Shown in pieces: positions 3,913 to 27,539 of a stretch of 28,758 nt of DNA (position 1 is the first letter of the stretch; each line of letters opens with the position of its first letter). The DNA is from a virus. A program made the translations under genes and the position numbers. Below the pieces are notes generated by a model. It made no database searches, was not told the origin of the DNA, and was given only the letters and a program-made list of their open reading frames with translations. Location of the stretch: the UHGV virus genome UHGV-0099614, one strand, 5' to 3'.

Positions 3913-3987
3913 GTCCTCTTAGTTAAATGGATATAACGAGCCCCTCCTAAGGGCTAATTGCAGGTTCGATTCCTGCAGGGGACACCA
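3913..3987 (+). tRNA. argW: tRNA-Arg (anticodon CCU)
   Basis: 75-nt sequence starting gtcctcttagttaaatgg and ending ggggacacca. Anticodon loop ctCCTaa gives CCU. Matches E. coli argW as I recall it and is the known integration site of CPS-53-type prophages. Confidence 0.9.
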
Positions 3988-3988
3988 T
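3965..3988. repeat. attL core: 24-bp direct repeat covering the 3' end of tRNA-Arg
   Basis: ttcgattcctgcaggggacaccat is identical to 27516..27539. Confidence 0.8.
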
Positions 3989-4148
3989 TTATCAGTTCGC
4001 CTCCATCCGTACCAGTCCGCAAAATCCACTGAATATCAAGCCTCCCGTAGATTCACAGTTCGTCATGGTTCGCCTCAGATCGTTGACAGCCGCACTCCAT
4101 GACGGGTAAAAAGTGGATAAAATAATTTTACCCACCGGATTTTTACCC

Positions 4149-5306
4149 ATGCTCACCGTTAAGCAGATTGAAGCAGCAAAGCCGAAAGAAAAACCATACC
4201 GCCTTCTCGATGGTAATGGCCTGTACCTTTATGTCCCTGTGTCAGGGAAAAAGGTATGGCAGCTTCGCTACAAGATTGACGGTAAGGAGAAAATCCTGAC
4301 TGTCGGAAAATATCCGCTTATGACTTTGCAGGAGGCAAGGGATAAGGCATGGACTGCGAGGAAAGACATCTCGGTTGGCATCGATCCGGTAAAGGCGAAA
4401 AAGGCTTCGTCTAACAACAATTCCTTTAGTGCGATTTACAAGGAATGGTACGAGCACAAGAAGCAAGTCTGGTCAGTAGGCTATGCAACTGAACTTGCCA
4501 AAATGTTTGATGACGACATTTTACCTATCATCGGCAGCCTTGAAATTCAGGATATTGAGCCGATGCAACTGCTGGAAGTAATCCGCAGATTTGAAGATCG
4601 CGGTGCAATGGAGCGAGCCAACAAAGCCCGCAGAAGATGCGGCGAAGTTTTCCGTTACGCTATTGTCACCGGAAGGGCTAAATATAATCCGGCACCTGAC
4701 CTTGCTGACGCCATGAAGGGATACCGCAAGAAGAACTTCCCGTTTCTTCCTGCAGACCAGATCCCGGAATTCAACAAAGCACTGGCAACATTTTCAGGAA
4801 GTATCGTATCGCTCATTGCCACCAAGGTTTTACGCTATACAGCCCTAAGAACGAAAGAGCTTCGTTCCATGCAATGGAAGAACGTCGATTTTGAAAACAG
4901 GATTATCACCATCGACGCCAGTGTGATGAAGGCACGCAAAATTCATGTGGTTCCTATGTCAGACCAGGTGGTTGAACTTCTCACTACGCTAAGCTCCATC
5001 ACTAAACCAGTATCAGAGTTTGTTTTTGCCGGGCGCAACGATAAGAAGAAGCCAATCTGCGAGAACGCGGTATTGCTTGTGATTAAACAAATCGGCTATG
5101 AGGGTCTGGAAAGCGGTCACGGATTCAGGCATGAATTCAGCACGATTATGAACGAGCACGAATGGCCTGCTGACGCTATTGAAGTGCAACTTGCACATGC
5201 CAACGGCGGATCTGTGCGCGGGATTTACAACCATGCTCAGTATCTCGATAAGCGCAGAGAAATGATGCAGTGGTGGGCGGACTGGATTGATGAAAAGGTG
5301 GAGTGA
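4149..5306 (+). CDS. intS: P4-type tyrosine integrase (IntS-like)
   Basis: N-terminal arm-binding region MLTVKQIEAAKPKEKPYRLLDGNGLYLYV..., catalytic-region motifs HGFRH and tyrosine-region RGIYNHAQY. The ORF track starts at a GTG at 4113; ATG at 4149 gives 385 aa, the length of K-12 IntS. Confidence 0.85.
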   Translation: MLTVKQIEAAKPKEKPYRLLDGNGLYLYVPVSGKKVWQLRYKIDGKEKILTVGKYPLMTLQEARDKAWTARKDISVGIDPVKAKKASSNNNSFSAIYKEWYEHKKQVWSVGYATELAKMFDDDILPIIGSLEIQDIEPMQLLEVIRRFEDRGAMERANKARRRCGEVFRYAIVTGRAKYNPAPDLADAMKGYRKKNFPFLPADQIPEFNKALATFSGSIVSLIATKVLRYTALRTKELRSMQWKNVDFENRIITIDASVMKARKIHVVPMSDQVVELLTTLSSITKPVSEFVFAGRNDKKKPICENAVLLVIKQIGYEGLESGHGFRHEFSTIMNEHEWPADAIEVQLAHANGGSVRGIYNHAQYLDKRREMMQWWADWIDEKVE

Positions 5307-5345
5307 TCGACCTTAACCACTATCGAATATCACAAATCCTTGCAA

Positions 5346-5380
5346 CAAGGCTCAAAGCCTTGTGTGTCTAAGTTTTGTTT
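5346..5380 (+). terminator. Candidate intrinsic terminator downstream of the integrase gene
   Basis: Hairpin caaggc-tcaaa-gccttg (5346..5362) followed by a T-rich tract gtgtgtctaagttttgtttc. Confidence 0.45.
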
Positions 5381-5459
5381 CATCAACCACAGCAAGTCAT
5401 CGATCGATTGAGACTTGGATGATAGACTTCATGCTTTTGATTATTAGCTGATAGAAGAA

Positions 5460-5822
5460 ATGTTAAAGCTATTTGCAAAGTACACCTCGATTGGTGTGCT
5501 AAACACACTTATACACTGGGTGGTTTTTGGTGTATGTATCTATGCCGCGCATACCAATCAGGCTCTGGCAAACTTCGCAGGTTTCGTTGTGGCTGTGAGT
5601 TTTAGCTTCTTTGCGAATGCAAAATTCACATTCAAAGCATCAACTACAACGATGCGCTACATGTTATATGTCGGGTTCATGGGAACACTGAGTGCTACTG
5701 TTGGATGGGTTGCTGATAGATGTTCACTTCCTCCAATTGTCACTCTTGTTACCTTCTCCGCCATCAGCTTGGTGTGCGGTTTCGTCTATTCAAAGTTCAT
5801 TGTCTTTAGGGATGCGAAATGA
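5460..5822 (+). CDS. gtrA: GtrA, bactoprenol-linked glucose translocase (flippase)
   Basis: 120-aa small hydrophobic protein with four predicted TM segments. Sequence and length match the GtrA/YfdG family. ATGA overlap with the next gene. Confidence 0.85.
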
Positions 5823-25433: not shown

Positions 25434-25445
25434 CGTCCATTTCTT

Positions 25446-25775
25446 CTATTTGTATATATTTTTGTTTCCAATAATGTTATCACCAGAACCACTGTGATTC
25501 TGAGTCACTGACCCAATATTCGTGTTTTGCTCAGGCTGAATCAGTTTTAAAATTTGCTGTATTTCTGATGATTCGTTCAATTTTCGCTCGATAACATGCT
25601 CTCCATAATCCTTAAGCTCAAGAGTATTTACTTTATAAGCTAAAGTCTCCAATAAAGTATCGTCAACAATCCATCCATGTAGCTTTTCTTTCAAGAAACC
25701 TGTAGTTATTGCAACGCCGTTCTTAAACCCATCATAGAGTATTCCTGATAGCAGAGTACTTGTTAAAAAATCCAT
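25446..25775 (-). CDS. Small (109 aa) protein of unknown function, upstream partner of the 1094-aa ORF
   Basis: Strong SD (aagggggg) about 2 nt before the ATG at 25775. Ends ...NHSGSGDNIIGNKNIYK with TAG, 12 nt before and in frame with the large ORF. Confidence 0.65.
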   Translation of the reverse strand: MDFLTSTLLSGILYDGFKNGVAITTGFLKEKLHGWIVDDTLLETLAYKVNTLELKDYGEHVIERKLNESSEIQQILKLIQPEQNTNIGSVTQNHSGSGDNIIGNKNIYK

Positions 25776-26184
25776 ATCCCCCCCTTAAATTGCTTATTTA
25801 AACCTGTTGTCGCCGACTAAAACTGACCCATCCTTTTTGAGTTTTCGAGGTACAAAAGATGGTGTCTGAACTTGCTATCTGTGTTCTGGCTATATAGGAC
25901 TAGTCCATTAAATGATGATTACCTACTTGAACCCATCATAGTGCCCGCCAATGGGCTTAACATACCCTAATGTAATTAATGTCTCAATGTGACTAGATCG
26001 CCCTTTTGCACTTTAGGACTGATAGATCCGCTTCTCGCTTAAGGTTGCCCGCACCCTTCTGCATATGTTACTGAAGATGGTCAAGCAACATGCAAATGGG
26101 TAGTCAACTGGATGCGAATACTCATATTTTGTCTTATCCGACCATGTAAACACATCCCAGAGGGGTGTATATTGATGATTTAGG

Positions 26185-26391
26185 CTATTCAAGATCGCTA
26201 GTGTCGAAAACAATCTGCGACTTATCCATCTCCAGGCAATCTGGAGGCAAACCCAGCATAGCCTCAGCATCACCTACATTACCGATAATGGCGTAGTCAT
26301 CATATCCCCATCTTTCCAGATCGAGATTGCTTTCGGGATAACCAGGGGATAGTAACAACCATTCACGCAACTCTTTCAGTGTCTTTTCCAT
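26185..26391 (-). CDS. Hypothetical small protein (68 aa)
   Basis: ORF with ATG at 26391 (the ORF track starts at a TTG at 26397), normal GC content, weak SD. No family recognised. Confidence 0.3.
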   Translation of the reverse strand: MEKTLKELREWLLLSPGYPESNLDLERWGYDDYAIIGNVGDAEAMLGLPPDCLEMDKSQIVFDTSDLE

Positions 26392-26754
26392 AATCAATAA
26401 GTTCCATGTTTAAGATTGGCTGACCACCAGCTACAGTCAATGATTATCCCATACGGGTAAAGCGGTGTCGGGCTATTTCTTCCAACTATCCCCCAATGAG
26501 TAGGGTTATCAAGAACCAGCAAGATAGCGGCAGTTGGAAGAGTAAACATTGATGTTTGAGGCATAACGCAAATTTGCGTTATGCCTGATTAACGGTAAAC
26601 CGGAACTACCAGCTATCATCCCCCTCTCAATAGGGTATACCGTAATGACAAGGTGATACAAAGTCTCAATAGGGTTGTATAGGAACATTTTGACTACACA
26701 AAATGCATTATGTATCATTTGCACTTATATTCACAACCCTATTGAGACAATGCA

Positions 26755-27381
26755 ATGAACGTTAGAATTTACTGCCGAGCATCAACTGAGGGGCAACACG
26801 CTGATCGAGCACTTACCAGCCTACGTGAATTTTCAAAATCAAAAGGCTGGCAGATTGCAGGAGAGTATATAGAAAATGCTAGCGGGGCGAAGCTTGAGCG
26901 CGTAGAGCTTATGCGGCTATTGTCTGAAGCCCAGTCCGGCGATCTGTTGCTAGTGGAAGCTATAGATCGTCTGAGTCGCCTAGAACATAGCGCATGGGTC
27001 GAACTGAAAGATACGCTCAACCGAAAAGGGTTAATCATCGTATCAATGGATTTACCAACGAGCTGGCAGATGGTCGAGATGGCAGGCAATGACCTAACCA
27101 GCGGCATCCTGAGAGCCGTAAATGCCATGTTGATTGATATCCTTGCCACAATGGCACGGCAGGATTACGAAACACGTCGTAAACGCCAACAGCAAGGCAT
27201 TGAGCGAGCTAAAAGCGAAGGAATATACATTGGCAGGGAGAAAAATCAGGAAGCCCGAGAGATCGTTAGAGAGATGTTGGAGCAAGGAGTAAAACCTGAA
27301 CTCATCATGAAGGCAGCAGGAATCAGCCGAGCGACTTACTACCGTATAAAAAGTGAGCTGTCAGTCGTAAAATCAGAATAA
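26755..27381 (+). CDS. Serine recombinase (resolvase/DNA invertase family)
   Basis: 208 aa. N-terminal VRIYCRASTEGQ carries the catalytic-serine motif (Y-x-R-x-S-T-x-x-Q). C-terminal ISRATYYRIK is the HTH DNA-binding domain. Confidence 0.85.
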   Translation: MNVRIYCRASTEGQHADRALTSLREFSKSKGWQIAGEYIENASGAKLERVELMRLLSEAQSGDLLLVEAIDRLSRLEHSAWVELKDTLNRKGLIIVSMDLPTSWQMVEMAGNDLTSGILRAVNAMLIDILATMARQDYETRRKRQQQGIERAKSEGIYIGREKNQEAREIVREMLEQGVKPELIMKAAGISRATYYRIKSELSVVKSE

Positions 27382-27515
27382 CCTTTGAAAGGTCGTCAGG
27401 CTTGTTTCATCTGCTAAAAGCCAGCATTTCTGACCATAATACCTGGGGGCACCTACTGGGGCACCCACCAAAATCGAAAGACAAATAAGTTATAATTCAA
27501 TCTTTTAGTTTAATT

Positions 27516-27539
27516 TTCGATTCCTGCAGGGGACACCAT
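27516..27539. repeat. attR core: second copy of the 24-bp tRNA 3'-end repeat
   Basis: Identical 24-mer ttcgattcctgcaggggacaccat; flanking bases differ on both sides, as expected for an att duplication. Confidence 0.8.

Follow-up and report, generated by a model that had tools for sequence, protein, structure and literature searches.

We analyzed the virus genome UHGV-0099614 (28,758 nt; this whole stretch is called the window below), which carries a composite island at the 3' end of the transfer RNA (tRNA) gene argW, between the chromosomal genes yfdC and dsdC. Very probably, the island derives from two unrelated elements that both target argW, a P22-like prophage and an island with an integrase of its own, which came to lie in tandem and were then fused by a deletion; we infer that the composite can no longer be excised. 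An initial annotation of this DNA had described a horizontally acquired composite island at argW with its ends marked by exact 24-bp repeats, and our results uphold that description. The annotation had also read the two repeats as the left and right attachment sites (attL and attR) of one tRNA-integrating element, and this is the point on which we reached a different conclusion.

ARAGORN identified one tRNA in the window, tRNA-Arg(CCT) at 3913-3987, and Rfam concurred. The Rfam scan of the window returned nothing beyond this tRNA, and promoter and terminator scans of the window gave results at chance level. The insertion site and its flanks comprised the following features.

3913-3987, plus strand: argW, tRNA-Arg(CCT), the integration target (ARAGORN; Rfam tRNA, 63.4 bits)
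3965-3988: left copy of the 24-bp repeat, consisting of the last 23 nt of the tRNA, encoded CCA included, plus one base
3973-3988: IntS-type 16-bp core, within the left repeat copy (PMC2951348 and the Sf6 attP annotation)
27516-27539: right copy of the 24-bp repeat, the attR core of the island; the same 24-bp pair flanks a lone island in locus L001 and in Klebsiella (L017)
2905-3837: yfdC, chromosomal flank (identity to annotated genomes)
27634-28575, minus strand: dsdC, chromosomal flank (identity to annotated genomes)

The sequence TTCGATTCCTGCAGGGGACACCAT was present at 3965-3988 and at 27516-27539 with 24 of 24 positions identical, as had been reported, and no further copy was found when up to 3 mismatches were allowed. 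The identity ended at exactly 24 bp, with the adjacent bases differing at both ends, and 100 shuffles produced 0 matches to the repeat. Also as first described, an integrase adjoins the tRNA (its gene, 4149-5306, begins 161 nt past it), and yfdC and dsdC are chromosomal.

The initial annotation had called for a comparison with argW loci that lack the island. We fused window 3600-3988 directly to 27540-27940 and ran this empty-site query against 5426 complete E. coli genomes, the set to which genome counts below refer. The query aligned without interruption (790/790), and its best matches were annotated as yfdC, tRNA-Arg and dsdC. A single place spanning at least 80% of the query was found in 911 of the 5426 genomes. 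Because a contiguous empty site exists in E. coli genomes, the edges of the insertion coincide with the repeats, and the intervening 23,527 bp are accessory DNA. The strain that matches the island and the dsdC flank at 99.9% identity was only ~96% identical in the left flank (window 1-3988; yfdF-mlaA-yfdC), and yfdF in the window is a long (418 amino acids), AT-rich variant, suggesting differing recombination histories on either side of the argW hotspot.

An exact 24-bp repeat at both ends, an integrase beside the tRNA and a matching empty site would all be expected if IntS, the tRNA-adjacent integrase, had recombined a 24-bp phage attachment site (attP) core with argW and so left the attL and attR of a single element. 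The length of the repeat makes this account very improbable. The KplE1 core is 16 nt (PMC2951348), the IntS-type core CTGCAGGGGACACCAT is annotated as the 16-bp attP core of Sf6, and the right copy in K-12 reads ...gtagatgtCTGCAGGGGACACCATccttg; that is, IntS-type phages (Sf6, KplE1, K-12) duplicate 16 bp only, and the 24-bp repeats cannot be credited to the integrase beside the tRNA. Of the KplE1/HK620/Sf6 recombination module (IntS, TorI, attL, attR), the window does contain an IntS-type integrase beside attL with the 16-nt core CTGCAGGGGACACCAT. Three further results speak against a single element: the right 9.5 kb, with the right repeat among them, match at 99.9% identity a separate island that encodes an integrase of its own and is found by itself; a remnant of a second integrase lies at 17986-18279; and the arms beside the two repeat copies come from different elements. 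The arm at 27382-27515 was unlike the phage attR arm of CT02 and had no similarity to the IntS/TorI attR arm.

Strain CT02 (locus L002) carries the two elements as an unfused tandem, as 5CRE51 and Z1323HEC0011 also carry tandem elements. The middle site in CT02 consists of a phage arm, the 16-bp core and an island arm, and shares the 16-bp core only. Because IntS types duplicate 16 bp and the CT02 middle site has this structure, we take the left repeat copy to be the argW 3' end and the right copy to be the attR of the island. The extra 8 bp of the right copy thus stem from the second, unrelated island: the additional TTCGATTC probably reflects a longer identity to the tRNA (24 bp) in the island attP. 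To judge from these alignments, the 24-bp repeat is a signature of the island family, Klebsiella included. In CT02 itself, the argW 3' end (L002 3166-3189) reads GGGGACGCCA in place of GGGGACACCA, with the discriminator base changed from A to G, consistent with the phage attP having supplied the new 3' end of that tRNA.

The two halves of the insert have separate parents. The left half, 3989-17986 (13,998 bp), is a remnant of a P22-like prophage of the Sf6/HK620/KplE1 type. The right half, 17987-27539, is the right 9.5 kb of a ~10.7-kb argW island: window 17987-28758 was 99.9% identical to the island plus dsdC of strain Z1323CEC0003 (L001), in which the island stands alone at argW between identical 24-bp copies. 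No genome of the 5426 contained at least 80% of the whole insert at one place. The halves meet at a single position.

17987-17988: phage/island fusion junction with the 2-bp microhomology TA and parental sequences on both sides

At this junction the phage parent (L012-L014, phage-like contigs that have the gene downstream of ead) reads ...GGATGATA/TGGGCG, the island parent reads ...CACGGTA/AACAAGG (L001 4347), and the window reads ...GGATGA(TA)AACAAGG. Homology between the window and L001 begins at 4347, inside the integrase gene. An illegitimate deletion at 17987-17988 thus appears to have joined the two elements. Compared with the tandem loci L002 and L008, the deletion measured at least ~3 kb; what was lost included torI and the attR arm of the phage, the middle core and, from the island, the attL arm and 994 nt (331 codons) of the integrase gene.

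We propose the following course of events. A P22-like prophage and a ~10.7-kb island, both targeting the argW 3' end, would, whichever of them integrated first, have come to lie in tandem in the order argW, P22-like prophage, hybrid middle att site, island, island attR, dsdC. The prophage would then have shed about two thirds of its genome in at least five internal deletions, and a further illegitimate deletion would have fused codon 332 of the island integrase to the phage gene that lies downstream of ead. Host-useful genes (gtrABC, cI/cro/cII and GAPS6) and IntS would be what was left over.

The exact junction was found in none of the 5426 genomes and in no GTDB species representative, and the strain closest to the right half differs from the window by ~4% in the left flank. 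Both observations would fit an assembly chimera at 17987, in which case the real locus would be an unfused tandem, or the halves would come from different strains. Several features of the locus render such an artifact highly unlikely. No repeat that could mislead an assembler is present at the junction, only the 2-bp microhomology; between yfdC-argW and dsdC, both halves are ordered and oriented as expected; the joined outer flanks are 100% identical to single E. coli genomes; and analogous fusions with other breakpoints occur in finished genomes. Fusions of both element types at other breakpoints were in fact common. In EcPF15, a remnant of gtr and the tail fibre is joined to the island at window position 19716, and in Z1323HEC0011 torI and the middle site are kept and the island has an internal deletion. 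The protein clusters P0007 and P0008 (L007 10178-10954) are Rad52::Rep and Int::Rep chimeras, that is, further independent deletion fusions.

Two other sequences were considered and set aside. E. coli H3 (L020, CP028732, 9090-32079) has a heavily decayed argW P22-like prophage whose breakpoints are not those of the window, which gives no evidence that the deletions go back to a common ancestor; in this locus gp10 lies directly beside the lysis genes, Q and the helicase are fused, torI and attR are kept, and there is no island. The sequence phiv205-1 (MN340231) at first seemed to be a full-length match, but it proved to be a prophage prediction that includes chromosomal flanks and has no island.

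The deletion bears directly on mobility. Searching the window by tblastn with TorI (the TorI/HkaC recombination directionality factor) from CT02 or Sf6 gave no match, and the KplE1 attR primer site CTCTTAAGCCGCGCCAATGG, which was found in 8 comparator loci, had no match in the window at up to 3 mismatches. TorI is essential for KplE1 excision (PMC3509656), and IntS is a lambda-type heterobivalent integrase that requires arm sites (PMC2951348). Because IntS is left without an excisionase and an attR arm, and the island integrase is a stump, the composite is predicted to be locked in the chromosome. The initial annotation had proposed polymerase chain reaction (PCR) across attP to detect excised forms. 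We predict a negative result for the composite, because torI and the middle att site are gone, as are the IntS-type attR arm and three quarters of the island integrase.

A composite that is still mobile would instead require IntS to act on the shared core, aided by AlpA, the HTH_17 protein or a foreign TorI, with the circle replicated by the HUH Rep. In its favor, IntS, AlpA, Rep and the serine recombinase are all intact, and both ends carry the 16-bp IntS core. Even so, we judge continued mobility to be distinctly unlikely: heterobivalent integrases require that both recombining partners have arm sites, the window has neither the IntS-type attR arm nor the essential torI, and AlpA belongs to the other element.

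Two points weigh against our preferred account of two fused elements that can no longer leave. The junction rests on one sequence, and excision may still occur if IntS recombines the cores alone or if another element in the same cell assists. With these points counted, a tandem of unrelated elements fused by deletion is still the account that we favor.

The left half contained the following features.

3989-4148, plus strand: IntS-type attL arm (3973-5299 is 97% identical to Sf6 18114-16788)
4149-5306, plus strand: intS, intact tyrosine integrase of 385 amino acids (Pfam Arm-DNA-bind_3, Phage_int_M, Phage_integrase)
5460-5822, plus strand: gtrA, O-antigen modification operon (Pfam GtrA_DPMS_TM)
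5819-6736, plus strand: gtrB, O-antigen modification operon (Pfam Glycos_transf_2)
6749-8014, plus strand: gtrC-like serotype-specific glucosyltransferase (phrog_19534 glucosyltransferase, E 5e-49)
8081-9793, minus strand: tailspike whose N-terminal domain is the P22 head-binding type and whose receptor-binding part is different (Pfam Head_binding, E 7e-65; tblastn to Sf6 residues 1-175)
9882-10175, plus strand: Mnt/Arc-type repressor, a remnant of immI (Pfam Repressor_Mnt, Arc)
10362-10556, minus strand: remnant of the gp7 injection protein, residues 1-65 of 230 (tblastn; blastn against Sf6)
10559-11014, minus strand: gp14, full length (Pfam DUF2824; tblastn of gp14/gp26 97-99%)
11014-11862, minus strand: gp26 tail needle with Sf6-type knob, full length (Pfam Phage_tail_NK; tblastn of gp14/gp26 97-99%)
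11855-12388, minus strand: HNH homing endonuclease between gp26 and gp10 (Pfam NUMOD4, HNH_3; PADLOC HEase, E 1e-31)
12410-13828, minus strand: gp10 head-completion protein, full length (Pfam Phage_stabilise, E 2e-283)
within 13829-14307, minus strand: 3' remnant of gp4 (to ~13929) joined to a 5' remnant of the lysozyme gene (~13930-14132); the blastn match to L002 stops at 13929
14104-14307, minus strand: holin, intact (Pfam holin family)
14549-15076, minus strand: fusion reading frame of gp43 replication initiator residues 1-37 and DnaB-like helicase residues 340-478 (Pfam DnaB_C)
15259-15537, minus strand: cII (Pfam Phage_CII)
15646-15846, minus strand: cro (Pfam Cro)
15947-16663, plus strand: cI, LexA-type repressor (Pfam Peptidase_S24 with HTH_3)
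16681-17049, plus strand: small hydrophobic protein 3' of cI (phrog_6534, function unknown; hypothetical in L002)
17324-17649, plus strand: remnant of PL/nutL and the N leader
17677-17970, plus strand: ead/Ea22-like gene, C-terminal part

IntS was 98.4% identical to the Sf6 integrase over 384 amino acids and 31% identical to the island integrase. In KplE1, the attL arm overlaps the intS promoter (PMC2951348). Mapping against Sf6 showed which segments are kept and which are missing, and indicates that at least five internal deletions cut a P22-like phage of ~39 kb to 14 kb. One deletion took the remainder of gp7 together with gp20 and gp16, and coat, scaffold, portal and terminase were lost at the gp4/lysozyme fusion, where the Pfam Phage_lysozyme match covers residues 36-73 only. 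The origin region was deleted at the gp43::helicase fusion, and nin/Q were likewise lost; N and all recombination and early-left genes were deleted near the PL/nutL remnant. The immI remnant is without arc and ant. When Sf6 proteins were run by tblastn against the window, no terS, terL, portal, scaffold, coat, gp20, gp16, Q, N, Erf or TorI was found. The left half is thus no intact Lederbergvirus prophage, since its modules for virion, packaging, lysis and replication are incomplete and only truncated forms of gp7, lysozyme, gp43 and the helicase remain. The HNH homing endonuclease is missing from the gp26/gp10 position in Sf6 and CT02. Lambdoid phages often have exclusion genes immediately 3' of cI, the position of the small hydrophobic protein.

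The surviving genes are plausibly useful to the host, through O-antigen glucosylation by gtrABC, homoimmunity from cI/cro/cII and, in the right half, anti-phage defence by GAPS6.

The right half contained the following backbone features.

17986-18279, plus strand: island integrase pseudogene, the C-terminal 97 of 428 codons (tblastn residues 332-428, 99%; partial Pfam Phage_integrase)
18272-19027, plus strand: protein of 251 amino acids, function unknown
19184-19375, plus strand: AlpA (Pfam Phage_AlpA, E 4e-18; PHROG excisionase/regulator)
19424-19615, plus strand: open reading frame (ORF) of 63 amino acids
19697-19891, plus strand: HTH_17 protein
19888-20274, plus strand: ORF of 128 amino acids
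20343-21395, plus strand: HUH rolling-circle Rep-like protein (Pfam REP_ORF2-G2P, PF23343, 29.7 bits against a cut-off of 27.8)
21396-21866: AT-rich non-coding stretch 3' of Rep, kept in all island variants, Klebsiella included
26626-26746: three copies of CTCAATAGGGT, 5' of the recombinase gene and kept in Klebsiella
26755-27381, plus strand: small serine recombinase of the resolvase/invertase type (Pfam Resolvase, E 2e-23; phrog_125 DNA invertase)
27382-27515: island-type attR arm with GGGGCAC repeats (3 mismatches in 134 nt against the L001 attR arm)

The island has a constant gene order, with a 428-amino-acid tyrosine integrase, a ~250-amino-acid protein, AlpA, three small ORFs (one of them HTH_17), the HUH Rep, a cargo slot and the serine recombinase, which belongs to the conserved backbone. 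The same order was found in L001, L008-L010 and Klebsiella L017. Across the 5426 genomes the backbone occurred in 543, in every case on the chromosome. The Klebsiella pneumoniae homologue (Rep 50% identical) shares the yfdC-argW locus, the gene order and the 24-bp repeat pair. P22 packages DNA from terS towards the tailspike, int and attL. We therefore set aside the idea that the island spreads by lateral transduction from a P22-like neighbor, since packaging in this direction would lead away from the island.

The Rep motifs FTF/LTL-(R/K)P, EPH(V/I)H and IDYMAK were invariant, and residues H130, H132 and Y191-K194 (HUH and YxxK) were invariant in homologues down to 49% identity. An AlphaFold2 model of Rep from a 6-sequence alignment reached a pLDDT of 39, too poor to confirm the fold, and a PDB sequence search with Rep gave no match. 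Short direct repeats lie at 21583 and 21636 in the AT-rich stretch after Rep, which is a possible origin of replication (21396-21866). The CTCAATAGGGT copies are two direct and one inverted, and the outer pair forms a perfect 16-nt inverted repeat, 54 nt apart. The triple set was also present in L001, L002, L006, L007 and Klebsiella L017 (13680-13800), and these sites may serve as recombinase-binding (res) or operator sites. A fourth CTCAATAGGGT-like site in the 251-amino-acid ORF (18866) is not kept in CT02 and is best taken as chance.

The initial annotation had called everything between the repeats phage- or satellite-derived. The phage origin held for the left half, and the satellite label is unproven for the right. 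The island does have an integrase (intact in sister islands, truncated in the window) and AlpA. It has no primase/helicase-type replicase (pri-rep, P4 alpha), the HUH Rep being its sole replication gene, and helper-packaging or capsid-hijack genes gave no Pfam or PHROG match in the island, four backbone ORFs of which are unannotated. Because it has neither a primase-type replicase nor a recognizable packaging or capsid gene, the island does not qualify as a PICI or P4 member, and 'satellite' and 'mobilizable element' are both hypotheses for it. It is conceivable, though in our view rather unlikely, that the right-hand element represents an undescribed family of ~8-11 kb argW-specific Enterobacteriaceae islands, perhaps a satellite or mobilizable element that depends on P22-like phages. 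Such a family would combine a tyrosine integrase, AlpA, a single-tyrosine HUH Rep, a serine recombinase with its triple site and a swappable slot with diverse anti-phage cargo, and would repeatedly form tandems and fusions with P22-like prophages that share its tRNA. A literature search found no description of the island family, which is weak evidence.

The cargo slot contained the following features.

21867-26603, minus strand: variable cargo slot, holding GAPS6 in the window
22149-25433, minus strand: gapS6b (NCBIfam, 1063.7 bits against a cut-off of 850)
25446-25775, minus strand: gapS6a (NCBIfam, 120.3 bits against a cut-off of 90)
26185-26397, minus strand: ORF of 70 amino acids, in the cargo slot

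GapS6a and GapS6b are adjacent, and both were full-length matches, with the Pfam domains PIN-TPR-GreABC and HetE-N; a PDB sequence search with GapS6b matched TPR repeats only. GAPS6 is known to NCBIfam and not to PADLOC (2023). The Vibrio prototype of GAPS6, expressed in E. coli, protects against several phages (Mahata et al., bioRxiv 10.1101/2023.03.28.534373). This cargo was rare (22-24 of the 5426 genomes), and the slot contents varied by strain (L002, L008-L010, L015, L017), other cargo including an Sll1717-type P-loop ATPase, a GTPase-domain pair and several hypothetical proteins. In Klebsiella (L017 11044-13373 against window 21396-26320), an HNH_2-domain gene and others lie directly 3' of Rep, and the slot used in E. 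coli is nearly empty; the island backbone seems to have two cargo insertion points. The right edge of the variable cargo abuts the first CTCAATAGGGT copy. Cassette exchange by the serine recombinase was considered and is unsupported, as no CTCAATAGGGT-type site was present at the left cargo edge.

The exact mosaic in the window is new, and it is a case of ordinary genome decay at a well-known hotspot. It offers a worked example of how islands are built at a tRNA: independent elements, each with a different integrase, accumulate at one tRNA; mobility and lytic genes are then lost by deletion and host-useful cargo is spared, here O-antigen modification, repressor immunity and the rare GAPS6. It also carries a warning, in that a perfect att-like repeat beside an integrase proves neither a single element nor mobility; in this case the length of the repeat, 24 rather than 16 bp, exposed the second element. 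A separate study of the small island family and its cargo slot may be worthwhile.

The gp10, gp26, gp14, cII and helicase fragments are 92-100% identical, as proteins, to temperate Lederbergvirus phages of the Sf6/HK620/CUS-3/Kapi1 type, which integrate at argW, and the N-terminal region of the tailspike has 68% protein identity to that of Sf6-type phages. Relative to these phages, the window keeps ~14 of ~39 kb and has no terminase, portal, coat, Q, N, origin or xis. The lone argW island (Z1323CEC0003; the Klebsiella pneumoniae homologue) shares the serine recombinase and the 24-bp attR with the window, and in Z1323CEC0003 GAPS6 as well, but the window is without the attL arm and integrase codons 1-331. 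Hotspots of defence cargo are also known from phage satellites and small integrase-bearing islands (Rousset 2022; Hochhauser 2023, PMC10121019), which likewise pair a conserved backbone with one slot whose candidate defence genes vary by strain; the argW island differs in that no P4 or PICI hallmark genes were detected in it and its replication gene is an HUH Rep.

At the same site in K-12, CPS-53/KplE1 has the same attB, attL arm and 16-nt core, and its intS and gtrAB are ~95% identical to those of the window. KplE1 keeps torI and the attR arm and is still excisable (PMC2951348), whereas the window lacks both. The window also has a different gtrC, retains virion and immunity genes, and includes a second element. 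The remark in the initial annotation that the content is much richer than the K-12 remnant was borne out: CPS-53 is 10.2 kb, and the window shares with it only the flank-intS-gtrAB segment and the 16-bp core.

The closest documented analogue of the composite is Sp16 of the O157:H7 strain Sakai, annotated as a 'P22-like phage'. It follows the same plan, with argW, IntS, a virion-gene remnant, a deletion fusion, the 3' part of Rep, cargo, resolvase and attR. Its fusion differs, joining the needle gene to Rep, and at 8.6 kb it has no gtr/immunity region and carries a 470-amino-acid hypothetical protein as cargo, not GAPS6. Its island parts are ~95% identical to window 20677-21702 and 26625-27538.

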